Below, in pieces: positions 37,667 through 48,864 of a stretch of 64,000 bases of DNA (position 1 is the first letter of the stretch; the number at the start of each line of letters is the position of its first letter). Position numbers and translations under genes: made by a program. Under the pieces are notes generated by a model. That model was not told where the DNA came from, did not search any database, and worked only from the letters and a program-made list of their open reading frames with translations. Source of the stretch: Alphaproteobacteria bacterium (GTDB lineage: Bacteria; Pseudomonadota; Alphaproteobacteria; Bin95); contig CBDAVA010000003.1 of assembly GCA_965200785.1 (NCBI GenBank), positions 2,086,205-2,150,204 of the forward strand, read 5' to 3'.

Positions 37667-39331
37667 ATGCCCGCCCATGCCAATACCATCAGCGGCCGCA
37701 GCGCCTTCCTCGCCGTCCTCAGGGACGAAGGCGTCACGCATCTCTTCGGTAATCCGGGGACGACCGAATTGCCGATCATGCACGCCCTGACCGAACAGAG
37801 CGATCTGGGCTATGTGCTGGGGTTGCAGGAGTCGGTTGTCGTCGCCATGGCGGACGGTTATGCGCGCGCTTCCGGCAAGCTCGCAGCCTGCAATGTCCAT
37901 GTCGCGCCCGGATTGGGCAACGCCATCGGCGCGCTCTACACCGCGTCGCAAAGCGGCTCGCCGATTATCGTGACCGCAGGCCAGCAGGAGCAGGGCCACG
38001 GGCTGACGGAGCCGCTGCTCTACGCCCCGCTCGTCCCGATCGCCGAACCGGTGGTCAAATGGGCGGTGGAGGTATCGCGGATCGAGGACCTGCCGCGCAT
38101 CCTGCGGCGCGCCGCCAAGGTGGCGACCGCGCCGCCGACGGGGCCGGTGTTCATCTCCCTGCCGGGCGACATCCTGAACCGCCACGAGGCTATCGAGCTG
38201 GGCCGGGCGACGCGGGTCGAGTCGCGTGTCCGGCCTTCGGACGCCTTGTTGTCTGCAATAGCGGCCCGTATCGCAGCAGCGGAGAATCCGGTCATCCTGG
38301 CGGGCCACGAGACAGCCACCGGCGGCGCGCTGGAGGAGGCCGGCTGCCTTGCCAGCCTGCTGGGCGCGCCGGTCTATCAGCAAAGTGTGCCGCAGGGCGC
38401 CCATTTTCTCTCGGAGCATCCCTGCTTCATGGGCGCGCTCAGCCGCAGCCAGCCGCAGGTCCGCCAGGCGCTGGCGCCCCACGATGTCATCATCAGCCTC
38501 GGAGCGGACTTCCTGCGCATGTCGGTCTGGAGCGAAACGGACCCGCTGCCGGAGCATCTGGCAGTCATCCAGATCGGTCTGAGAGACTGGGAGCTCGCAA
38601 AGAACTACGCCGCCGAATTCGCCGCGCTCGGCGATGTGCGGGAAACGCTGGCGGCCCTGAACCCGCTGCTGGAAGAGCGGCTCGGCGCAAGCCGGCGGCA
38701 CCGCCCGGCGGCGTTCGCCGGGCAAAACTGGAGCGCCAGACGCGAGGGCGCCCGGGCGGCGCTGGCGGAGGTCTCGGAAGCCGTCGGCCCCATACCGCCC
38801 GACTGGCTTTGCATGTGCCTTGTCGAGGACTTGCCCGAAGACGGCATCATTGTGGACGAAGGGATCACTACCGGCGCGCATCTGCTGGATTTCCTGCCGT
38901 TTCGGGACGCGAACGGCTATTTCGGCAATGTGTCCGGCGGCATCGGCTGGGGCATCGCGGCGGCGGTCGGCGTGCAGATCGCGCAGCCGGAGCGCCGCAC
39001 CGTCGCGCTTGTCGGAGACGGCAGCGCCATGTATTCGATCCAGGCGCTATGGACAGCCGCCAGCGCCCGGCTGCCGGTTGTCTTCGTGATCGCCAATAAT
39101 GGCGGCTACCGCATCCTGAAGGACCGGATGAAGGCGTTTCACGGCAATGACGCGCCGATCGGCATGGACTTCCGGGATCCGCCGATCAACGCTGCGCGTC
39201 TGGCCGAGGGGTTCGGCATGGCGGCGGTGCGGGTGGAGACGCCGGCGGCCTTCCGGCAGGCCTACCGCGATGCGCTCGCAGGCTCCCGGCCGGTTCTGAT
39301 TGAAGCGATGGTCAGCGAATACGGGCGGTAA
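37667..39331 (+). CDS. Thiamine-diphosphate enzyme, benzoylformate decarboxylase / acetolactate synthase large-subunit-like.
   Basis: Three ThDP-enzyme domains are present, with the GDGS…NN ThDP-binding motif (ALVGDGSAMYSIQ…NNGGY). The ATG at 37667 lies within ORF 37538-39331. Confidence 0.8.
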   Translation: MPAHANTISGRSAFLAVLRDEGVTHLFGNPGTTELPIMHALTEQSDLGYVLGLQESVVVAMADGYARASGKLAACNVHVAPGLGNAIGALYTASQSGSPIIVTAGQQEQGHGLTEPLLYAPLVPIAEPVVKWAVEVSRIEDLPRILRRAAKVATAPPTGPVFISLPGDILNRHEAIELGRATRVESRVRPSDALLSAIAARIAAAENPVILAGHETATGGALEEAGCLASLLGAPVYQQSVPQGAHFLSEHPCFMGALSRSQPQVRQALAPHDVIISLGADFLRMSVWSETDPLPEHLAVIQIGLRDWELAKNYAAEFAALGDVRETLAALNPLLEERLGASRRHRPAAFAGQNWSARREGARAALAEVSEAVGPIPPDWLCMCLVEDLPEDGIIVDEGITTGAHLLDFLPFRDANGYFGNVSGGIGWGIAAAVGVQIAQPERRTVALVGDGSAMYSIQALWTAASARLPVVFVIANNGGYRILKDRMKAFHGNDAPIGMDFRDPPINAARLAEGFGMAAVRVETPAAFRQAYRDALAGSRPVLIEAMVSEYGR

Positions 39332-41354
39332 ACACCCGCGCCGCGAGCAACAACAGCAACAGCCCAATGGTGACCAGCAGGCCGTAGCCGATTAGCCGTC
39401 CGGCCTCCGCCAGCCCGGCGAACGCAATGACAGCGCCGGCGATCAGCGGGCCGGCGATGCTTCCGGTGCGCTCCAGCAACCGGAACGCCGCTGTGACGGT
39501 GCCAACGCCGTATGCGGACGCTTCGGACCTGAAAAAGATCGGCAGCGCCGCTATTTGCGGAGTCATCATGAAGGACTGGCCGAGACCGATCAGCGCAACG
39601 CCGCATATCAGGGGCAAGCTGTCGGTCGTGGAAATGAAAAGCAGGCAGCCGGCCGCCACGGAAACCCCGCCGGCCACAATCGCTATGCCGTGACTCTGGA
39701 ACCTGTCCACGAGCAGCGCCGCCGCCTGATTCATCGTCAGCAGCACCAGGAAATAGACCATCATCGCGCGTCCGATAGCGGCGCCGCCCCAACCGATGGA
39801 GTCCAGATAGAGCGGCACCAGGAAGAACAGGAAGCCGGTAAGCACGATGCGCGACGGCACTGTCGAGAGCGCCACGAATGCCAGGAATCTGATGTTTCCG
39901 TAGATTCCTATCCTGCTGCCGCGCGGGCGGACGGCTGTTCTGGCGCCTATGCCCTCATCCGATGACAGGAAGCCGAAAGTGATCACCATGGCGACAAAGA
40001 CGATGGCGGACCCGACGAGGAAGGTGTTCTCATAGCCCAGGCGCTCGCCGAGGATGCCGCCGATTGCTGTCGCGCAGATGCTGCCGCCTCCGGTGGCGGT
40101 CACGAACGCGCCGATATTGAGCGCGCGCCGCTGTCTGGGCGCCGTCGTGGCGAGTCGGACCAGCACGCCCGCAGTCACAAGGCCGAATCCGGACGCCGTC
40201 ACGCACCGCCAGACAATGAGCTCGATGAAGCCGGTCGCGAATGCCGTGGCGACAAGGCCCAGGCTCGTCGGAATCATGCCGATCAGCAGCGTATTCCGTG
40301 CGCCGTACCGGTTAATCATCTTCGGCGCGAGCGGCGTCGTGAACAGCATCGTGACGACCCACACCGACATCGGCATGGCGATCGCGATCGACATGTCGAT
40401 GCCCAGCGACGGGTCATAGAGCTCGCGCACGAAAAGCGGGAAGAAGGGGCGGGAAAGCTCGACGCCGAAGATGAAGAAGAACAGCGGATATTGCACATCT
40501 CCGGCGCGCAGCACCTGGACCGGCCGGTAGGTGTCCGTCTCGGCGAACACCCGGCCTTCCCGCAGCTTCTCCAGCCCCCCGCCGCCGGCTGTGGCCGCCA
40601 ATGCGCGAAAACGCCGGTTGATCTCGACATTGAGGCCGTTCATCGCATCAATGACCCGGCCCAGATCGCCCCATCCCCGGGAGGTCACCACGCCCGAGAA
40701 GTCGCCCTGGCCAACCGCCCGCATCAACTGCCTCATCAGGCCGATGGACCGGGCCACTGTCAGCGACAGCACCAGCAGGGTCAGTTCGAGGACGATCAGA
40801 ATGGCGACGCACAGCGAAATGCCAATGTCGGTGAACATGCCGGCCATCGTGTTCGTCACGTAACGCCGGTCGATCCCGATTATCGCGCTCCCGACCTGCT
40901 TGCCGTCATGGACCAGGGGATGCGAGATGTTGTAGTCGGAGCCGATGGAAATGAAGGTTCCGGCCCAGGCTTCGCCGGCGTTTGCAGCAAACGGGTAGGA
41001 CGCGGCTTCCGCGCCGCCAACCTCCGCCGAAAACAGCACCTTGTTCTCGGGGTCGGTCACTGCGAGATAGGCGACTTCCGGATGGTCGGCCAGCAAGTTC
41101 TTCAGATAGGCGTTGACCCCCCGCAGACTCGCGATCGGAATGTCAAGACTCACAGCCCTGTAGAGGTCGTTGCTGATCGAACGAGCCAGGACATGCGCCT
41201 TTTCCTTGATGACCGGCTCCAGCCTTGCCTCGACAACGCGGAGCGCAATCACGGCGAGAATCGCATTTGCGGCAATCAGGGCCACCACGGCAACTAGACC
41301 GACGTGGATCCCCAGACCCGCCAGGGTCGGAACACCTCGGCTGCGGCGGCTCAC
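39312..41354 (-). CDS. Periplasmic sensor + HAMP module fused to a 12-TM MFS transporter.
   Basis: The N-terminus has a TM helix, a ~150-aa periplasmic domain (…YLKNLLADHPEVAYLAVTDPENKVLFS…) homologous to the three paralogs in this cluster, a second TM helix, and a HAMP-like segment (…GDFSGVVTSRGWGDLGRVIDAMNGLN…). An MFS core follows. The GTG at 41354 overlaps the stop of the upstream stub gene (GTGA). Confidence 0.7.
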   Translation of the reverse strand: MSRRSRGVPTLAGLGIHVGLVAVVALIAANAILAVIALRVVEARLEPVIKEKAHVLARSISNDLYRAVSLDIPIASLRGVNAYLKNLLADHPEVAYLAVTDPENKVLFSAEVGGAEAASYPFAANAGEAWAGTFISIGSDYNISHPLVHDGKQVGSAIIGIDRRYVTNTMAGMFTDIGISLCVAILIVLELTLLVLSLTVARSIGLMRQLMRAVGQGDFSGVVTSRGWGDLGRVIDAMNGLNVEINRRFRALAATAGGGGLEKLREGRVFAETDTYRPVQVLRAGDVQYPLFFFIFGVELSRPFFPLFVRELYDPSLGIDMSIAIAMPMSVWVVTMLFTTPLAPKMINRYGARNTLLIGMIPTSLGLVATAFATGFIELIVWRCVTASGFGLVTAGVLVRLATTAPRQRRALNIGAFVTATGGGSICATAIGGILGERLGYENTFLVGSAIVFVAMVITFGFLSSDEGIGARTAVRPRGSRIGIYGNIRFLAFVALSTVPSRIVLTGFLFFLVPLYLDSIGWGGAAIGRAMMVYFLVLLTMNQAAALLVDRFQSHGIAIVAGGVSVAAGCLLFISTTDSLPLICGVALIGLGQSFMMTPQIAALPIFFRSEASAYGVGTVTAAFRLLERTGSIAGPLIAGAVIAFAGLAEAGRLIGYGLLVTIGLLLLLLAARVFTARIR

Positions 41355-42103
41355 CGGGCGTTCCCTTCGGCGGCGGCCAGCGTCGCCGCGGTTTCCCGCA
41401 CCGTTGCGCTGTAGCCGGCAAGCTCGGCAATATCTGTATCGGCCGGCGTTTCGACTGCGTCCGGCTTGAGGAGGCTCTCCACGCTCTGCTGTATATGCCG
41501 GGCGGTTCTGGCGAGCCGCCAAAGCGCGGCGCCGGTGCCCAGCACCGCCAGCAAACCGCTGGCCAGGAAGATGATGACGGCGGCTTCCACAAGGTCCGTC
41601 GTCAGCCCGTCAACGATGCTGTTGTAGCGCGCTTTGCTGTAGCGAACCGCCACGCCGCCCTCGAGCTTGCCGAAATTGTTGATGACCGGCGCGCCGACGA
41701 CAAAGGACTCCGGGTCTTCGATGCGCCAGACCTGTCCTTCCGCCTCGCGGTTGCCGGCAGTCCAGGCGGCGGGTGTGTCCGCCCCTCCGCCGGCCAGGGC
41801 ATCACCTCCGTGAACAAGCACGCTGCCCTGCGCATCGAAAATGCTGACGGACTGAAGCTCCGGGTAGTCGCTGACCAGCGCATCCACGATGGCGCGGCTT
41901 TCCGCGATGTTCTTGAGCGGCAGCCCGAGGTCCACCGCCTGCCTCAGACGGCCCGAGGTATCCAGCGCGACAACCGAAACCCGGGAATCGTCCAGCCCGC
42001 GCAGTATGTCCCCGAATTTGTGCTGGTTGAGCAGGATCATCAGCGCCATCGTCACCGCAAAGGCGCACAGGAAACCGAGGTTCAGGACGAACAGAAGCCT
42101 CAT
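41351..42103 (-). CDS. Stand-alone periplasmic sensor + TM + HAMP stub protein (paralog family).
   Basis: 250 aa, with TM, a periplasmic domain carrying the DYPELQSVSIFDAQGSVL and VINNFGKLEGG motifs, a second TM, and a short HAMP-like tail. The ATG at 42103 overlaps the TGA of the upstream ATP-grasp gene (ATGA). Confidence 0.6.
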   Translation of the reverse strand: MRLLFVLNLGFLCAFAVTMALMILLNQHKFGDILRGLDDSRVSVVALDTSGRLRQAVDLGLPLKNIAESRAIVDALVSDYPELQSVSIFDAQGSVLVHGGDALAGGGADTPAAWTAGNREAEGQVWRIEDPESFVVGAPVINNFGKLEGGVAVRYSKARYNSIVDGLTTDLVEAAVIIFLASGLLAVLGTGAALWRLARTARHIQQSVESLLKPDAVETPADTDIAELAGYSATVRETAATLAAAEGNAR

Positions 42104-43110
42104 GCCGCCAGCACTCCCTGGCGTTGCAGGCTGTAGCAGAGGAAATGCTCGATCATGGCTGCATGGGATACGCCGGCCGCTTTTGCGCCGACATTCATGG
42201 ACATGCCGGTTGAGAGGTTGCAGGTGACGTTGAATTCGAGCAGGCGGAAGGACCGGTCCGGCGCGACCCGGAAATCGACCCGGAGATAGTCGCAGGGCTG
42301 CACCAATTTCGTGAATGCCACTGCGGCCTGCCTGAGTTCTTCGCAAAGCGGCGCATCGTCGAAAGGCTCCCCGCGCTTCCCCGGATCCAGAAAGCGCTTC
42401 TGGCGCTCGGTCTGCACACCTTCCCGCAAGTCGGAATGATTGGCAACGGGGTGCAGCGCCAGAGGCCCGCCCAGCACCGGCACCGTTACATCGAAGCCCG
42501 GCGCGAGCGCTTCTATCAGCGCCTCCTCGCCAGCGGCCAGAAGCGCCGCCGACCGCTCCCTGGCCTCGGTCCAGCTATCGCATATGGAGCCTTCGTCCAC
42601 ACTCTCGGAGTTGGCGCCGAAACGGGGCTTGACGAAATAGGGTCCGTCGAAGGCCGGAGGTTCGCCCAGGTCGGCTTCGGTGACTGCGACAACACCGTCC
42701 GGCGCGGCAAGGCCGGCGGCGCGCGCCATCAGCTTGGTGATCCACTTGTCTTCAGCCATGGCGCGCACATTCGGCGGGCTGCCGAGATAGGGGACGCCCG
42801 TGCGGGCACAAAGCGATGACACCAGGATCTCCGGGTTGCGGACGGCCTCCCGGTTGTAGATCTGGAAGATGTAGTCGGGCGCCGGGCTGCGGCGCATACG
42901 CGCCTCGAACGCCTCAAGGCTGGCGCAGGGCTCCACCGAGCGCGCCAAACCGCGTAGGACCGAAAGCACTTCGAATTTGGTATAGAGTTCGCGTCCGTAG
43001 ATCGGGTGGACACTGGGCGGCGGCTCGATCCAGTCCTCCGCGTATTTGGCAAGAAACAGGAGATTCAGCGTCCTGCGCCGCTCCGGGTCGATCCGTAACA
43101 GGTTCAACAT
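42100..43110 (-). CDS. ATP-grasp enzyme, D-alanine--D-alanine ligase-like.
   Basis: Ddl-like motifs are present (EDKWITKL, FVKPRFGANSESV, RVDFRV…LLEFNVTCNL). The ATG at 43110 lies within ORF 42100-43293. Confidence 0.7.
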   Translation of the reverse strand: MLNLLRIDPERRRTLNLLFLAKYAEDWIEPPPSVHPIYGRELYTKFEVLSVLRGLARSVEPCASLEAFEARMRRSPAPDYIFQIYNREAVRNPEILVSSLCARTGVPYLGSPPNVRAMAEDKWITKLMARAAGLAAPDGVVAVTEADLGEPPAFDGPYFVKPRFGANSESVDEGSICDSWTEARERSAALLAAGEEALIEALAPGFDVTVPVLGGPLALHPVANHSDLREGVQTERQKRFLDPGKRGEPFDDAPLCEELRQAAVAFTKLVQPCDYLRVDFRVAPDRSFRLLEFNVTCNLSTGMSMNVGAKAAGVSHAAMIEHFLCYSLQRQGVLAA

Positions 43111-43200
43111 CACCAGATACCAACGATGCGGCTCACGCGAAAAGCCCGCTGATGATAGACTGCATTCCGAATCCAAGCAACGTAGTGGACACCGAGTGCC

Positions 43201-44214
43201 ATGTTCCGAGCGCTTCTGCTGGCTTTCACCATCGTAACGGCGGCTGCTCCGGCTGCCCAGGCCGAACCCTTTACGATCTACATGATCGTGCATCGTGCAG
43301 GTTCAGGCGCCGACGCCGGTTTTCGCGACTATCTCGAGGCGAACGGTGTCGAAGCAACCTTCATTCTCCGGGATATGGAGAACGATCGGTCGCGCCTGCC
43401 CGGCTATATCGAGGAGATCAAGGCGATCAAGCCCGATCTGATCTATGCTCAGACCACCTCCGTGACGCGTGCCGTTGTCGGCCGGCTTGAGGAAGCCGAC
43501 CCGGAGAAGCATGTTCTCGACATTCCCGTCGTGTTCGCGATGGTCTCCTTTCCAGGCAGGTCGAAGCTGGTGCCGGTCGATCCCGATCCGACGGCGCCGA
43601 TGCTGTCGAAGCGCAATCTGACGGGCGCCCGGCATGTGGTGTCGAACATGGTGCGGCTGAATGCGATGCGCACATACATGTCGTTCGAGAAGCTCGGCAT
43701 GCTCTACGACAAGAGTTCAGGCGCCCAGCGTCGCTCGGAAGCCGCCATGCGCGCCCTGGCGGAGGAAGCCGGCATCGAATTCGTATCAGACAGTCCGACC
43801 GAACCGGACGTGGAACGGGACCCGGGGCAGATTGAGCCGACACTCCAGCGCCTCAAGGATGCAGGGGTCGATTTCCTGTATATCCCCCCGTCCAACTTCT
43901 TCGGTGCCCATGCCGAGCTCGTAACGCAGATTGCGACTGATCTGAAAATGCCTACCTTTTGCGGCGTGGAAACGTTAATCCGGCAGCATTGCATGACCGG
44001 ACTGGTGAGCCCGCTCTATGCCGTAGGTCAGTTCGCTGCCTTCAAGGCCGAGCAGATACTCATCGACGGCAAGGACCCTGGTGAAATCCCGATCGAAACA
44101 CTGTCGCGGTTTTCCTTTGTTATCAACATGGAGACCGCACACAAACTTAAGGTGTATCCGCCAATGGAGATATTGCGCTTTGCTCAGTTCATCAAGACTG
44201 GGGTGGACTCTTGA
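43201..44214 (+). CDS. Periplasmic substrate-binding protein (ABC_sub_bind / PF04392-like), with no adjacent permease or ATPase.
   Basis: Signal peptide and a two-lobe SBP-like sequence, transcribed divergently from ATP-grasp 1. Confidence 0.6.
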   Translation: MFRALLLAFTIVTAAAPAAQAEPFTIYMIVHRAGSGADAGFRDYLEANGVEATFILRDMENDRSRLPGYIEEIKAIKPDLIYAQTTSVTRAVVGRLEEADPEKHVLDIPVVFAMVSFPGRSKLVPVDPDPTAPMLSKRNLTGARHVVSNMVRLNAMRTYMSFEKLGMLYDKSSGAQRRSEAAMRALAEEAGIEFVSDSPTEPDVERDPGQIEPTLQRLKDAGVDFLYIPPSNFFGAHAELVTQIATDLKMPTFCGVETLIRQHCMTGLVSPLYAVGQFAAFKAEQILIDGKDPGEIPIETLSRFSFVINMETAHKLKVYPPMEILRFAQFIKTGVDS

Positions 44215-45239
44215 TTGCCTTGAAGCGTTTGGACAAGGTCAGACGTGCAGCCCTTCGAGTATTGTATTTGGCGCCGCATGCGCCTTCGACTGATAGTGTG
44301 CGCCCTCCAGCAATTCATCCCGATTACGGCGTGCAGCCTGCTTATCAATACGAAATGTGGGATATCCTCCACAACGAGTTAGGTCTGGATGTTGATAGCC
44401 GATCAGATCTTGGAAGTTTGCCGGAGGCCTTCGAGGGTCGAAATTACGTCTTCTCCCTCTACAACATTGCGCCTTTTCGCAATTCGGAAATTTATGTTTC
44501 GGCGCTGACCGCCAAGGCCGGCATCGCGGGCCTTGGCGCGCCGCCGAATATCCGCGCATTGGCTGAAGACAAGTGGCTCTCCAAGCTCGCGGCGCAAGCC
44601 ATCGGCATACGGACCCCGAACGGAGCGATATTCGGGCCGGGCGACCCGGTGGAATGCCCCGCCTTTGACGGTCCTTACATTGCGAAGCCGCGGTTTGGCG
44701 CGGCTTCGACAGGTATTGACACCAACAGCGCCCAGGCGAATTTCAGCGCTTTGGCGGGCCGCGTGGCGGCGCTTGGAGCCAGCGTCGATGAATGTCTGGT
44801 CGAACAGGTCTTCGGGACGTTCGACGTAACGGTGCCGGTTCTGGTCGGCGATGACGGGCCGGTCGCCCTGCCCGCTGCCACCCAGACCGCCAGTGGTCCA
44901 TATGGTATCTTCACGCATCGCCAGAAGCGCAAGATCGATCCCGGTATGACAAGGGAATTTCCGGCGAAAGATTGCTGCTTGGAGACCATTATCGAGGACG
45001 CGCTCCGCTTTGCGCGGCTGGCGACGCCGTATGACTATATTCGCTGTGACTTCCGGGTTGGTTCCGAAGGCCACGCTTTCCTCGAGTTCAATGTCGCTTG
45101 CTCGATTGGCAGCGCCATGGCATTCGCCCAATCGGCGGCGACAGTGGGAATACCCGTGGAGGCATTGGTAGAGCACATTCTGGCCACCAGCCTCGACCGG
45201 CAGTGGGGTCACGGCGTGTCCGAACCGCCGCCCAGGTAA
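44211..45239 (+). CDS. ATP-grasp enzyme, Ddl-like paralog of the 42100-43110 product.
   Basis: Its N-terminus aligns with ATP-grasp 1 (IALKRLDKVRRAALRVLYLA vs LNLLRIDPERRRTLNLLFLA) and it shares EDKWLSKL, KPRFGAAS and RCDFRV…LEFNV. A TTG start overlaps the upstream stop. Confidence 0.7.
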   Translation: MIALKRLDKVRRAALRVLYLAPHAPSTDSVRPPAIHPDYGVQPAYQYEMWDILHNELGLDVDSRSDLGSLPEAFEGRNYVFSLYNIAPFRNSEIYVSALTAKAGIAGLGAPPNIRALAEDKWLSKLAAQAIGIRTPNGAIFGPGDPVECPAFDGPYIAKPRFGAASTGIDTNSAQANFSALAGRVAALGASVDECLVEQVFGTFDVTVPVLVGDDGPVALPAATQTASGPYGIFTHRQKRKIDPGMTREFPAKDCCLETIIEDALRFARLATPYDYIRCDFRVGSEGHAFLEFNVACSIGSAMAFAQSAATVGIPVEALVEHILATSLDRQWGHGVSEPPPR

Positions 45240-48121
45240 CGGACCGCCACTGTGGTGATGTCGTCGCTCTGCTCGACTCCGGTCGAGAACACCTCGACCG
45301 ACTCCCGCATGGCATTGCAGATCGCCGAGGGGGGCTGGCCGGCAAGGGATAACAGTTCGGCTTCCAGGCGCGGTTCGCCATATTGCTCGCCGGCTGCGTT
45401 GAAGGCTTCGTTCACCCCGTCGGTGTAAAGGAACAGCGTTTCTCCGGGCTCCAGCGCGGTTTCGCCTTCGCTGAAATGGAAGCCCGGCATAATGGCCAGA
45501 GCCAGCCCTGTATCCATCGGCAGGGTCGAAAGCTGCCCCTCGCAGTCGATCCGATATGTCGGGTTATGCCCGGCATTGGCGAAGGCGACGCGCCCGGTTC
45601 CGGTGTCAATAACCGCATAGAACGCGGTAACAAACATCATCTGCTCGTTTTCCGCCTCCAGCATGTCGTTCAACGCCGTCAGCACCTTGCCCGGCGACTC
45701 GCCGGCAAGCGCCGTGGCCTTGAGCAGGGTGCGCGCGATCAGCATGAAAAATGCGGCCGGAATGCCCTTGCCGGATACATCCGCAACAACCAGTCCGATG
45801 CGGTGTTCGTCGATCGCAAAATAATCATAGAAGTCGCCGCCCACTTCCTTGGCCGGCACCATCTGGGCGGCGATCTCGACGGTGCGCTGGGGCGGCGTCT
45901 CGCGCGGCAGCACGGAGAGTTGCAGGTCGTGGGCGATCGACAATTCGCTTTCGATCACCGCCAGGCGTTCCTTGTGCTTGAGCGCCTCGCGGAGTTCCTC
46001 GATCAGTTCCGTCAAACGGCCATGCTGCTCGCGAATGCGCTGCGCCATCTGCTCGAAAACGAGCGTCAATGCCTCGAATTCGTCGCTGGCGCCTTCCTGC
46101 TCCAGCTGTGTGAGCTGGTCGGTGACCGCTTGCCGGGCGTCCTCGCCGACTGTTGAGGTCAGGCTCGACATCTGCCCGCGCAGAAACCGCTCGCGCCGCC
46201 TTTGCGCGCGGCGGCGCTCGGCCGACAACCGCTCCACTTCATCCAGGGAACTGCGATAGGCCGCGACCGCCTTGGCGATGCGTGCAATTTCGTCCGAGCC
46301 GGTCGCCTGATCGATCCAGACGCCGCGCCGGCCTTCGGCCAGCGCCTCCAGCACGCGGATGACCCGATCCAGCGGCTGAAAGGAGCCGCGCAAATGCGCA
46401 TAAAGGCCCCAAAGGGCAATGCACGCAAAGATCGCCGCAGCGCCTAAAGACGCGAATCGCATCGTTTGCTGACGCGCGACCAGTTCGGTGATGTCGACCG
46501 CAACATGCAGCGCAGCAAGGCGCCCGCCATTGAGGGCGGGAATGTCGATTTTGGTCGTCGCATAATCGCCGTCGTCGTCGGCGAGGCGCTGCCAGAGCGG
46601 CGGGTCGGAGCCGAAGATCAGCCCCCTTTCGCTCCCGACCAGAAAGGCGTCGCCTCCGAGCACCGCTCCAGCGTCCAGCACCGCCGAGGTCAGCGGGATA
46701 CTCGCGGCGACGACCAGAACATCGCCCCGGTCAGGGTCTCCGAGAATCTCGGCAACCGTCCAGACAGGCTGGCCGTCGGCGTCGATATCGCCGCCGCTTA
46801 CGCGCATTCCGGAATCCACGACCCGCTTTGCCACACGCGGCGACAAGGGGTTGCGGCCAACAAACAGGCGCTCTGTTCCTTCGGACGGATCGAACGTCAC
46901 CAGTCGATCCAGCCCGTTTCGGGTGGCGGCGTCCTGGATCAACCGCGTGGCGCGCAAGCTGTTGCCGACGAGCAGCGCGAGGCGAATGCCGTCATTCGCG
47001 CGCAACGCGGCAAGCTGGTGCGCGACCGTATCCGTCTCGCGCTGCGAGAGGGTCTTCCAGACTGTTTTCAGGGCCGTCTGGCGGTCGTCATTGTAGCTTT
47101 CGGCCAGCAGGCGCTCCCGGACGATACTGCCATAACCGAGGGCGACCGCCACCAGCAGCCCGAGCAGGCTGACAATCAGCGTCAGACGGACATGAATCGA
47201 AACATTCCTGCCGACATTCCCGACGGCGCTTGGCGGCGCCGGAGCAATATCGCGAAAAGCGGGCTCGAGTCGTTCGACCAGTCCGCGGCGGATCTGCTCC
47301 AGGGCGCTGCGCACGGTCCGGCCGACTGCGGCGTCCCGGGCGTCCTCGACATGGTCCATGACGGCGTCATAACGCCCTCTGAGGCCGCGCAGAACGGCAT
47401 TGAACTGTCGGACCGCCGCACCGATCTCGTCCTGGAGTCCGAGATCGTCAAGCAATGACGGCCGACCTTCGCCAGCCTCGACAAGGCCCCGCTCCAGACG
47501 CCGCAGTCGACGGGTGACACGCAGCATCGCGAACAGCACCGTCAGAAAACCGGCTGCTGCGCCAACGCCGGCGGCGACCACAAAATCCGGCCAGTTGCGA
47601 TTCAGGACATGCTTGACGAAATCCCGCTCGACCGCGACATGCAACAGGCCCCGGGGCGCCGCCGCCGGGCCTATGGGGCGGATATCGACGGAGAAATCTC
47701 CAACCGTGTGGCGGTTTCTGACCTCCACCACGCCTCCGGCCCGGCGCCTCTCCTCGAATACCGTGCCCGCAGACTCCAGAACCGCCTCAAGCCCGTTGCG
47801 CGAAACACCGCTGTAATACACCGGCTCCTTGTCCGGGGTGGTCACGGCAATGAACCGGATATCCGGATTCTCATCCAGAAAACGCTGGAAGAACGGTTCG
47901 ACGCCCCGAATTTCCTCAAGAGGAATGCCGACTTCGGCGGCGTGTTCGAACTCGACCTTCATTGCCTGGCCGACCGCCAACGCCTTGCGGTCGAGCTCTT
48001 CCGCCAGGGGTGTCTCAGCCCACCAGTAGAACACGGCCGCCGTCGCGCCCGCCTGGAAGAGCGCGACGACGACGGCGGCGGCGCACGCCTTCCATCCGAG
48101 CATGCGGTAGAAGCGGTTCAC
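45209..48121 (-). CDS. Membrane-bound PP2C-type (SpoIIE/RsbU family) serine phosphatase with two periplasmic sensor regions and HAMP linkers.
   Basis: The first periplasmic domain (…FFQRFLDENPDIRFIAVTTPDKEPVYYSG…) is homologous to the other three sensor modules. Two TM pairs, HAMP segments and coiled coils follow, and the C-terminus carries the PP2C motifs GGDFYDYF, DVSGKGIPAA, NAGHNP and YTDG. The GTG at 48121 overlaps the upstream stub stop (GTGA). Confidence 0.8.
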   Translation of the reverse strand: MNRFYRMLGWKACAAAVVVALFQAGATAAVFYWWAETPLAEELDRKALAVGQAMKVEFEHAAEVGIPLEEIRGVEPFFQRFLDENPDIRFIAVTTPDKEPVYYSGVSRNGLEAVLESAGTVFEERRRAGGVVEVRNRHTVGDFSVDIRPIGPAAAPRGLLHVAVERDFVKHVLNRNWPDFVVAAGVGAAAGFLTVLFAMLRVTRRLRRLERGLVEAGEGRPSLLDDLGLQDEIGAAVRQFNAVLRGLRGRYDAVMDHVEDARDAAVGRTVRSALEQIRRGLVERLEPAFRDIAPAPPSAVGNVGRNVSIHVRLTLIVSLLGLLVAVALGYGSIVRERLLAESYNDDRQTALKTVWKTLSQRETDTVAHQLAALRANDGIRLALLVGNSLRATRLIQDAATRNGLDRLVTFDPSEGTERLFVGRNPLSPRVAKRVVDSGMRVSGGDIDADGQPVWTVAEILGDPDRGDVLVVAASIPLTSAVLDAGAVLGGDAFLVGSERGLIFGSDPPLWQRLADDDGDYATTKIDIPALNGGRLAALHVAVDITELVARQQTMRFASLGAAAIFACIALWGLYAHLRGSFQPLDRVIRVLEALAEGRRGVWIDQATGSDEIARIAKAVAAYRSSLDEVERLSAERRRAQRRRERFLRGQMSSLTSTVGEDARQAVTDQLTQLEQEGASDEFEALTLVFEQMAQRIREQHGRLTELIEELREALKHKERLAVIESELSIAHDLQLSVLPRETPPQRTVEIAAQMVPAKEVGGDFYDYFAIDEHRIGLVVADVSGKGIPAAFFMLIARTLLKATALAGESPGKVLTALNDMLEAENEQMMFVTAFYAVIDTGTGRVAFANAGHNPTYRIDCEGQLSTLPMDTGLALAIMPGFHFSEGETALEPGETLFLYTDGVNEAFNAAGEQYGEPRLEAELLSLAGQPPSAICNAMRESVEVFSTGVEQSDDITTVAVRYLGGGSDTP

Positions 48122-48864
48122 GGCTGTGATCCGATCCGGTCCAGCCGGTCGATCTCGCGCTCATCGGCGTCGAGGTCGGCCAGCAGGCCGGTCGCCGTCT
48201 TGTTGAAGGCGGCCAGGGACTCCGGCGCGTCCTCAATATCGACAGCATTGCCTTCCGCCATAGCCAGCAGCGAGGTGTCGTAGAGCCTGAGCATCCTGAG
48301 CGCGGGGAGAAACACCCAGTTGGAAAACAGGAAAATGAGAAACAAGCTCGCCACCAGCACGCCCGCAGCGATACCAAACACGGCGATGGTGGCGCGTTCG
48401 CGCAACGGCGCCCGATGCCTGACCTCGCTCTCCAGCAACACGCCCCCGACCGTCTTGCCGAAATTATTGACAAGCCGGCTGCCGACCATGACCGCGTGCT
48501 TATCCGCCTCGACCCAGAGCGCCTCGTCGGACCATGTCTTCATCACCGTGCCGACATCCGTCGGGTCGGTGGAGAAGAGGACCCGGTTATCCGCGTCGAA
48601 GACGAGCAGGCGGTCGATGTCGGGGTCCGCCGCCTGCGTCCGGTCGAGAAATTCGGCGATCTCCGGTATCGTCTGGAGTTGCAGGCCCAAATCAGTTCGC
48701 ACCGTGATGGCGTGTGCAATCTCATCGACGGTGAAACTGAAGTGAGACGCCTTGAGGGCTTGAAGCTCCCGGTCGAACATGCCGAGCGCGGCATTGACGA
48801 CAAGCGCCAGCGAAAGCGCAGCGCCGACCAGAAGCCCCAGTCCGAGCTTGATCCGCAGTCTCAT
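48118..48864 (-). CDS. Stand-alone periplasmic sensor + TM + HAMP stub protein (paralog family).
   Basis: 248 aa, with TM, a periplasmic domain carrying the ADPDIDRLLVFDADNRVLFS and LVNNFGKTVGG motifs, a second TM, and a HAMP-like tail. Confidence 0.6.
   Translation of the reverse strand: MRLRIKLGLGLLVGAALSLALVVNAALGMFDRELQALKASHFSFTVDEIAHAITVRTDLGLQLQTIPEIAEFLDRTQAADPDIDRLLVFDADNRVLFSTDPTDVGTVMKTWSDEALWVEADKHAVMVGSRLVNNFGKTVGGVLLESEVRHRAPLRERATIAVFGIAAGVLVASLFLIFLFSNWVFLPALRMLRLYDTSLLAMAEGNAVDIEDAPESLAAFNKTATGLLADLDADEREIDRLDRIGSQP

Follow-up and report, generated by a model that had tools for sequence, protein, structure and literature searches.

A conserved gene triad of Cache-type stub, sensor-MFS fusion and orphan PF04392 binding protein within a seven-gene alphaproteobacterial cluster

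Described systems and the cluster

HAMP-linked receptors drive kinases, chemotaxis arrays, cyclases and phosphatases. In the gene cluster described here a receptor module of this kind is fused to a transporter of the major facilitator superfamily (MFS). The cluster lies at positions 39312–48864 of a 64,000-nucleotide stretch of genomic DNA from an Alphaproteobacteria bacterium (GenBank assembly GCA_965200785.1, contig CBDAVA010000003.1, positions 2,086,205 to 2,150,204 of the forward strand), which is called the window below and supplies all coordinates. Its putative core is a triad consisting of a small membrane protein with an A-type sensor module and no output domain (a stub), a B-type sensor module fused to an MFS permease, and an orphan periplasmic substrate-binding protein (SBP) of family PF04392. 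The parts of the cluster (Cache, HAMP, MFS, PF04392 and SpoIIE/PP2C) are familiar, the wiring is not. Neither Pfam nor NCBIfam has a model covering the stub family, which is without a name, and a full-text search of the literature yielded analogues only and nothing on a Cache-HAMP-MFS protein, on the stub family or on this cluster, in keeping with the first-pass annotation of this DNA, which did not recognize the domain combination as a described system.

Among the closest described counterparts are the sensor kinases WalK, CitA and KinD, whose input consists of transmembrane (TM) helix, single-Cache/PDC domain, TM helix and HAMP. The cluster, in contrast, has no DHp or kinase domain, its outputs being none (the stubs), MFS or PP2C; its sensor domains score under the Pfam Cache cut-offs; and its modules come as obligate A + B gene pairs, whereas those kinases are each encoded by a single gene whose product forms homodimers. 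The best precedent for the stubs is CHH (bioRxiv 10.64898/2026.05.25.727664), a membrane Cache-HAMP receptor without enzymatic output that acts via a physically associated protein encoded next to it. In CHH the Cache domain binds haem and the partner is a soluble Ser/Thr kinase binding the HAMP, while here the partner would be a membrane paralogue, there is no haem motif and the cytoplasmic tail is unconserved. The phosphatase of the cluster shares the order periplasmic sensor, HAMP, SpoIIE/PP2C with SiaA of the SiaABCD system and with RsbU-type phosphatases, and in relatives of the cluster STAS and HATPase_c_2 domains are encoded next door. It differs from both in its extra N-terminal B-type module, its four TM helices and its own stub, and the window has no SiaB-, SiaC- or SiaD-like gene and no STAS gene.

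A transporter fold and a signalling module are united in one polypeptide in Sd-Amt1 (Amt-HAMP-GGDEF; PMC11152129) and in the SLC5/STAC histidine kinases CbrA and CrbS (PMC9100948). The polarity is reversed, however, since the transporter is the N-terminal sensor in those proteins and occupies the output position here. Binding-protein coupling, finally, would be a likeness to LuxP-LuxQ, TorT-TorS and the tripartite ATP-independent periplasmic (TRAP) and tripartite tricarboxylate (TTT) transporters, with the difference that the binding protein here belongs to PF04392, the membrane partners are others and there is neither DctQM or TctAB nor a kinase.

The seven genes of the region form three transcription units, AG1-stub1-MFS fusion on the minus strand, SBP-AG2 on the plus strand and stub2-PP2C on the minus strand, AG1 and AG2 being ATP-grasp enzymes; Pfam and NCBIfam scans agree with the open reading frames (ORFs) and domains first assigned to them. 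It is proposed that stub and fusion are made 1:1 through translational coupling and assemble as an A/B heteromeric receptor, in which one monomeric MFS would be served by a two-chain Cache/TM/HAMP sensor. The ligand-loaded SBP, or the ligand itself, would act on the periplasmic Cache pair, and the resulting conformational change would pass through TM2 and HAMP into the first MFS helix and so gate the permease. The MFS part, judged by motifs and fold, is most likely an exporter of the H+-antiporter type, so that the unit would match export of a solute to the amount of it in the periplasm. In the clade of the window a duplicated A/B pair, stub2 and the N-terminal module of a 970-aa protein, would have been grafted onto a dCache-HAMP-PP2C phosphatase, which would signal to a partner switch of STAS protein and anti-sigma kinase whose genes would lie elsewhere in the genome. 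The operons would also have gained two Ddl-like ATP-grasp ligases, which may produce or use up the transported compound.

To the reading as a whole, in which an SBP-informed A/B heteromer gates the fused MFS and the paralogous pair drives a PP2C partner switch, we give an even chance. The bolder proposition that the triad represents a new class of secondary transporter, in which the MFS is directly controlled or fed by a heterodimeric TM receptor and an SBP and HAMP-type signalling drives a transporter and not an enzyme, is offered tentatively and with considerable doubt. If true, a permease at the output of a HAMP receptor would be a new output class, giving a periplasmic signal direct post-translational control of solute flux, and the obligate A + B pairing would amount to a built-in heteromeric receptor by which a monomeric transporter could be equipped with a dimeric sensor. 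The cluster could also serve to study orphan PF04392 binding proteins and the way in which periplasmic input reaches PP2C partner switches.

Two subtypes of sensor module and their pairing

Stub1 (41351–42103, minus strand) is an ORF of 250 aa with an output-less A-type module. Stub2 (48118–48864, minus strand; 248 aa) is also A-type, with a TM helix, a single-Cache/PDC domain, a second TM helix and a short variable tail. B-type modules are carried by the two effectors. In the MFS fusion (39312–41354, minus strand; 680 aa) residues 1–285 (40500–41354) contain TM1, a Cache-like domain, TM2, HAMP and a linker, and in the PP2C protein (45209–48121, minus strand; 970 aa) residues 1–300 (47222–48121) contain TM1, a Cache-like periplasmic domain, TM2 and a canonical HAMP. 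The stop codon of each stub gene overlaps the start codon of its effector gene by 4 nt (GTGA in both pairs), and the stop of AG1 overlaps the start of stub1 in the same manner (ATGA); the overlaps of the stub/effector pairs were already noted in the first-pass annotation, and all three are real.

That annotation treated the four N-terminal regions as paralogues. Their homology is borne out by BLASTP, by hhalign and by hidden Markov models (HMMs) from distant loci. In BLASTP, stub1 and stub2 are 28% identical (E 2e-13), the modules of the MFS fusion and the PP2C protein match with E 3e-7 and stub1 matches the MFS fusion with E 1.6e-5. In profile-profile comparison the MFS and PP2C families align at 99% (hhalign, E 6e-18) over 237 columns running through HAMP, and the stub1 and MFS families at 96.6% (E 4.7e-10) over 173 columns. 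Direct comparison of stub1 with the PP2C protein gives a weak result, and it is the HMMs from distant loci that connect all four modules. They are not equivalent paralogues. An A-type HMM of 64 stubs and a B-type HMM of 55 MFS-linked modules, both from distant loci only (L028–L082 of the comparison set described below), score the window modules in opposite order: the A-type model gives stub1 159.7 bits, stub2 121.1, the MFS module 45.9 and the PP2C module 35.5, and the B-type model gives each stub about 30 bits, with stub2 at about 32, the MFS module 188.6 and the PP2C module 144.0. By these scores the modules are of two subtypes, A (both stubs) and B (the MFS- and PP2C-borne modules), each pair of the window consisting of one A and one B, and the split, as read from the profiles, is older than the divergence of the carrier lineages.

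Hydropathy gives two TM segments per stub (residues 5–23 and 162–180 in stub2), two in the fusion besides the MFS bundle (sensor TM1 at residues 20–38, TM2 at 177–195) and four in the PP2C protein. In the AlphaFold2 (AF2) model of stub1 (predicted local distance difference test, pLDDT, 78.7) TM1 runs on as a long periplasmic helix; next comes a PAS-like alpha/beta core containing five strands, followed by TM2 and a cytoplasmic helix-loop-helix. The features of the Cache/PDC fold are all present, namely the long N-terminal helix, the PAS-like core and the five-stranded antiparallel sheet between two TM helices, and structure matching finds the stub fold to resemble sensors of the WalK, CitA and KinD type. 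The Pfam Cache cut-offs are not reached. The MFS fusion scores 21.8 bits against the 28.4 of sCache_3_2, the weak match spanning residues 77–169, stub1 scores 17.1 against the 45 of dCache_1, and stub2 and the PP2C module have no Pfam Cache match at all.

Two further features had been ascribed to all four modules, a V/I-NNFGK motif and a HAMP-like segment, and both need qualification. The V/I-NNFGK motif is present in the two stubs and absent from the two effectors; as a family signature it was rejected, being stub-only and clade-specific, with a loose version in 23 of 128 stubs. HAMP is best supported in the B-type. The signature P…G.F…DE.G…N is kept across the 55 B-type modules, and residues 199–248 of the PP2C module (nt 47378–47527) match PF00672 with 34.1 bits, above the 25-bit cut-off. 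In the B-type module of the MFS fusion, HAMP (about residues 200–250) is supported by matches to the TM2-HAMP region of NblS and WalK; PF00672 is precomputed in many homologues of the fusion, and the orthologue in L061 reaches 21 bits, under the 25-bit cut-off. The stubs have a predicted helix-loop-helix in this position.

The pairing of the modules is seen across genomes. A pattern scan of one genome per species gave 154 relatives, in which the N-terminal module is kept, and 79 loci were retained; the counts given here come from searches of their ORFs in which the queries were the seven window proteins and HMMs for other conserved neighbours. Carriers include uncultured Alphaproteobacteria, Zavarzinia, Tistlia, Azospirillum, Ancylobacter, Lacibacterium and Geminicoccaceae, as well as Arenicellales and Beggiatoa among the Gammaproteobacteria, Cystobacter, Corallococcus and Hyalangium among the Myxococcota, and Spirochaetia. 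An A-type stub gene lies directly upstream of the sensor-MFS gene in all 79 loci. In 62 of them the two genes share 4 nt at stop and start, in five a single nucleotide. The PF04392 SBP is encoded in 72 of the loci, the MFS stop overlapping the SBP start by 4 nt in 33 of 54. A PP2C gene is found in 51, a STAS gene in 30 and a second stub in 28. Every locus has exactly one A-type beside one B-type module, and duplicated pairs likewise have one of each. The seven-gene layout of the window is reproduced exactly in 14 loci whose MFS fusion is 72–76% identical and also in L016 at 62%, and among distant loci the most frequent order is stub, sensor-MFS, SBP and dCache-HAMP-PP2C with STAS nearby and, in the one example scanned (L061), a fused HATPase_c_2. 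The neighbourhood is therefore syntenic across phyla, as expected of the single functional unit first suggested.

The bare triad of stub, sensor-MFS and SBP occurs in many genomes. Within the sequence examined there is no PP2C at 28 of the 79 loci, including loci with 10-kb flanks. One bare triad is in Azospirillum brasilense Sp7, on plasmid or chromid p1 (NZ_CP012915.1, about 597.5–601.6 kb; L083 7784–11846), with no PP2C within 9 kb, and the genetic tractability of this strain opens the system to experiment. The PLSDB record is unannotated at this triad. In L012, L013, L019 and L081 a second, diverged stub and sensor-MFS pair, directly followed by PP2C and without SBP, adjoins the first system or is convergent with it. 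Some genes appear split into several ORFs in metagenome-assembled genomes (SBP in L018, 7727–8716; PP2C in L070, 13094–15304, and L077, 16167–17576), reflecting either frameshift errors or gene decay.

Stub and effector, first proposed as partners, are also joined in nature. Single chains of A-module, B-module and MFS are found in P0063, P0064, P0068 and P0074, and a stub-profile search revealed six further A::B::MFS clusters at 50% identity or less, so that the fusions, counted as sequence clusters, are recurrent with at least six independent 50%-identity clusters. (When rows of the MFS family are included in an alignment, MAFFT places stub sequences on module 2.) The stub-profile HMM search, covering 1.84 billion representatives, returned 954 at E <= 0.001 and 500 at <= 1e-10 (50%-identity clusters). 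Almost all of the best 150 of the 954 are 240–290 aa long; 12 are of at least 330 aa, fused only to MFS or to a second module (tandem, no output). No kinase, GGDEF or MCP output was found in the long relatives among these best 150, the remainder being too short for a fused output.

These data bear on two other explanations. Receptors built of Cache, TM and HAMP usually form homodimers, and the stubs could accordingly be homodimeric, output-less Cache-HAMP receptors contacting a neighbouring effector non-covalently, with effectors that homodimerise in turn and no A/B heterodimer. The stub model, with its complete receptor-protomer layout of TM, Cache, TM and helix-loop-helix, is consistent with this, and the CHH receptor, which binds an operon-encoded kinase via its HAMP, is a direct precedent (bioRxiv 10.64898/2026.05.25.727664). 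The strict rule of one A and one B at every locus, which also holds in pair duplications, the conserved 1:1 translational coupling and the recurrent single-chain fusions nevertheless speak for a heteromer, and the stub tail, which would have to be the contact surface, is unconserved; the homodimeric arrangement is considered improbable. A second explanation dismisses the cluster as a chance juxtaposition or annotation artefact, with stubs left over from decayed sensor kinases or a fusion that is an over-extended ORF. High-GC DNA does yield many long spurious ORFs and the stubs have no Pfam family, but a family of the size and uniform length just described, with many invariant positions, synteny in 79 of 79 loci across phyla and an N-terminal module conserved in full-length fusions is incompatible with it. 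This explanation, whose chance was put as negligible, is excluded by the conservation data.

The permease and the orphan binding protein

Residues 286–680 of the fusion (39312–40499) form a complete MFS bundle. MFS_1 (PF07690) matches residues 292–620 with 96.8 bits against a cut-off of 33.4, the AF2 model of the homologue P0063 shows 12 long helices, and a motif-A-like loop is present; the protein is an MFS member on each of these grounds. Invariant residues include E299 and R302 in TM1 (nt 40458–40460 and 40449–40451), R383 in TM4 and R349, G351 and R353 of the motif-A-like R-x-G-x-R. A motif-C-like stretch in TM5, G-x3-C-[GA]-[TPS]-A-I-G-G-I, is conserved and was scanned for as [SC][IVF]C[GA][TPS]A[IL]GGI. 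Motif C is a signature of MFS antiporters, and the DHA1 form against which TM5 was judged is G-x3-G-P-x2-G-G. The MFS domain of the P0063 model (pLDDT 70–90) matches VMAT2, MdfA, NorA and SotB with TM-scores of 0.78–0.84. The sequence match of the fusion to NorA is weak, and NCBIfam transporter models all stay far below their cut-offs, the best at 36 bits. On motif and fold the MFS part is probably an intact DHA1-like H+-coupled permease that works as an exporter.

A start-codon artefact, which would have undone the fusion, can be set aside. About 60 full-length homologues of 675–697 aa (most 676–685), 62–76% identical to the window protein, retain the N-terminal module with its invariant residues, as do the 154 genomic relatives, and remoter homologues of 28–33% identity have the same architecture. 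NCBI and JGI label these proteins 'hypothetical protein' or 'MFS transporter', and a cluster look-up gave neither name nor accession for the window proteins.

The SBP gene (43201–44214, plus strand) encodes a Sec signal peptide (…AAQA/EP) and a protein that matches PF04392 with 59.8 bits and is related to PDB entries 6hni, 3lkv and 3lft. It was rejected as a TrpX equivalog, with 66.5 bits against 390. No ABC permease or ATPase is found among the called neighbours of the SBP gene, and there is no conserved ABC cluster across the 79 loci; the SBP is an orphan and not part of an ABC importer. Its proposed place in the unit is upheld by its linkage in 72 of the 79 loci, by this lack of an ABC partner and by one MFS::SBP fusion. 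This is P0065 (JGI sample 3300059473, contig of 16765 bp), a 1020-aa chain of sensor, HAMP, MFS, TM helix and PF04392 domain with a 249-aa gene upstream, in which the PF04392 part (E 3e-69 to the window SBP) is joined to the MFS C-terminus by the extra TM helix. The ligands in solved PF04392 structures are L-Trp, L-Tyr or L-Phe (PMC10443332), a first candidate ligand class for this SBP.

The same observations suggest a tripartite uptake system like TRAP (DctPQM) or TTT (TctCBA), in which the SBP would hand its substrate to the MFS, the stub would be the small membrane subunit and the Cache pair a docking platform, making a new SBP-dependent class. We know of no SBP-dependent MFS. The triad follows the gene logic of TRAP and TTT systems, in which a small membrane protein accompanies a large permease and an SBP; its genes often overlap, and fusions of small to large subunit exist, as in DctQM. 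An SBP that has no ABC partner, a triad that stands alone without signalling output in many genomes and the nutrient ligands of the PF04392 structures (PMC10443332) fit as well. The likeness is in gene logic only, and membership in TRAP or TTT was rejected: Cache stub and MFS take the place of the membrane subunits, and the SBP is from PF04392. A mere docking platform would have no need of the conserved cytoplasmic HAMP between TM2 and the MFS, the TM5 motif is of the antiporter type and the nearest folds are DHA1 exporters, and the wiring of an A/B module to PP2C as well fits signalling better than substrate hand-over. Uptake of this kind is judged unlikely, while deserving serious thought.

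It is also conceivable that the MFS does not transport and is a co-sensor ('transceptor') that passes information to the PP2C partner switch in the way UhpC serves UhpB. Sensors derived from transporters are known (Sd-Amt1, PMC11152129; SLC5/STAC kinases, PMC9100948), and PP2C and STAS genes accompany 51 and 30 of the 79 loci. Yet 28 loci, among them some with 10-kb flanks and that of A. brasilense Sp7, lack PP2C in the sequence examined, the order sensor-HAMP-MFS is the reverse of that in known transceptor fusions, and the transport motifs of the MFS (R349/G351/R353, E299/R302, R383 and the TM5 motif) are invariant, so that a transceptor appears very improbable. Since the bare triad occurs without other signalling output, the MFS is its sole candidate output, and control of transport would consequently be the core function and the PP2C branch an add-on.

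For gating of the MFS by an SBP-informed heteromer, several observations are unfavourable. The cytoplasmic tail of the stubs, a predicted helix-loop-helix, has no Pfam HAMP match and no conserved column across the 64 stubs, which makes a heterodimeric HAMP four-helix bundle doubtful, and the MFS fusion of the window has no Pfam HAMP match at E < 0.1. In the AF2 model of the fusion P0063 (mean pLDDT 64.5) module 1 reaches about 50–60, too weak to judge the packing of the modules. P0065 stands as one cluster, in which MFS and SBP may be truly fused or may only seem so through a 1-nt assembly error where stop and start overlap. The export direction is drawn solely from motif and fold resemblance, and MFS folds separate subfamilies poorly. 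The phosphatase has no STAS or kinase partner gene within the 64-kb window, and a role of the ATP-grasp enzymes in making or using the transported compound is speculation, no better than guesswork, with the genes absent from 57 of the 79 loci.

Coupling of the sensor may run through the TM helices instead of a HAMP bundle. Glu190 (nt 40785–40787), in the middle of TM2, is invariant in MFS-fused B-type modules and absent from the PP2C-linked module, and is a lead for direct intramembrane coupling of sensor and MFS. Together with E299 and R302 of the first MFS helix it could form an intramembrane coupling or proton-relay site.

Phosphatase branch, accessory genes and sequence context

Beyond its B-type module, the PP2C protein (45209–47221 for this remainder) consists of TM3, a second periplasmic region, TM4, a HAMP-like segment, a coiled coil and the SpoIIE domain. 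TM3 (311–329) and TM4 (556–574) were placed by hydropathy, and a HAMP-type match covers residues 555–628 (NCBIfam ArsS); with four TM segments, the protein has two separate periplasmic regions. SpoIIE (PF07228) matches residues 771–962 (nt 45236–45811) with 173.1 bits against 25 over profile positions 1–191 of 192, and the PP2C motifs GGDFYD, DVSGKG, TDG and DDIT are present in the translation. Although SiaA (NF038263) is the best NCBIfam match, it lies far below the cut-off (74.3 bits against 700) and the neighbours are stub, ATP-grasp and SBP genes, so that assignment as SiaA was rejected.

Full-length homologues of 970–974 aa exist. Other relatives align from about residue 305 and carry dCache_1 or dCache_3, HAMP and SpoIIE, with or without HATPase_c_2, and most of them lack a stub, the dCache-like region being the sole sensor of the PP2C. 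The 970-aa protein thus looks like a B-type module fused onto a dCache-HAMP-PP2C phosphatase, a comparison strengthened by L080, where a free-standing B-type protein of 488 aa stands beside the PP2C. This locus, from Geminicoccaceae, has eight genes chained by overlaps: stub, sensor-MFS, SBP, second stub, the B-type protein, PP2C, a cyclase/HATPase_c_2 protein and STAS. The suggested partner switching finds support in these relatives, 30 of the 79 loci having STAS and an anti-sigma-type kinase being fused to the PP2C in L061 or encoded by the next gene in L080, the two loci examined for it. It does not in the window, where HMMs and phmmer searches with the relatives' proteins found no STAS, HATPase_c_2, alpha/beta-hydrolase or His-phosphatase gene in 64 kb.

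The cyclase of L080 (11482–13899) is an 805-aa adenylate/guanylate-cyclase and HATPase_c_2 protein encoded between PP2C and STAS in one overlapping operon, and in this lineage the partner switch may control cyclic-nucleotide synthesis. Elsewhere, genes for an alpha/beta hydrolase (20 of 79 loci) and a His_Phos_1, phosphoglycerate-mutase-like protein (19 of 79) follow PP2C in about 19–20 loci of L042–L082 (for example, L061 15632–17375), in Arenicellales, Rhodobacterales and other lineages, with an Amt ammonium-transporter gene nearby in Arenicellales.

AG1 (42100–43110, minus strand; 336 aa) and AG2 (44211–45239, plus strand; 342 aa) are Ddl-like ATP-grasp proteins of 41% identity (E 6e-75), with homology from residue 1. 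AG2 begins with a TTG codon in a 4-nt overlap with the SBP stop. On identical DNA (L001 6116–7000) AG2 is publicly annotated with only 294 aa, compared with the 342 of the ORF from TTG 44211; as homology to AG1 begins at residue 1 of the longer ORF, the deposited start is probably wrong. AG1 scores 23.4 bits with Dala_Dala_lig_C, just under the cut-off of 24, and AG2 28.7, and AG2 matches DdlA 8evv with E 7e-8. Only this C-terminal ATP-grasp domain matches, and all Ddl cut-offs are missed (PRK01372, 48.2 bits for AG1 and 38.9 for AG2 against 243; TIGR01205, 35.5 and 33.5 against 245.65), for which reason both were rejected as D-alanine--D-alanine ligases. ATP-grasp genes are found in 22 of the 79 loci, in three or four lineages, and lie between MFS and SBP in Zavarzinia and myxobacteria. 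They are accessory to the system, and at this frequency a ligand made by the ATP-grasp enzymes, once envisaged for the unit, cannot be its general logic.

The divergent units AG1-stub1-MFS fusion and SBP-AG2 are separated by a 90-bp spacer (43111–43200), presumed from its position to be a shared control region. No sigma-70-like consensus was found in the spacer and no promoter-like site in a consensus scan of 39–49.3 kb. Over the same interval terminator-like sites are no commoner than in a shuffled control. Gene calling based on G+C at the third codon position (GC3) discriminates too weakly in this window. PADLOC anti-phage models match none of the seven proteins.

The flanking genes are metabolic and encode a thiamine pyrophosphate (TPP) enzyme, a short-chain dehydrogenase/reductase (SDR), an acyl-CoA synthetase, a CoA-transferase and a MaoC-like protein. 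Convergent gene ends overlap, by 20 nt between the TPP-enzyme gene and the MFS fusion (39312–39331) and by 31 nt between AG2 and PP2C (45209–45239), and no terminator-like hairpin lies between either pair. The G+C content is 0.60–0.62 in 42001–46000, which holds AG1, SBP, AG2 and the 3' end of the PP2C gene, and 0.63–0.69 on either side; from this drop the ATP-grasp/SBP segment may be a later insertion into the cluster.

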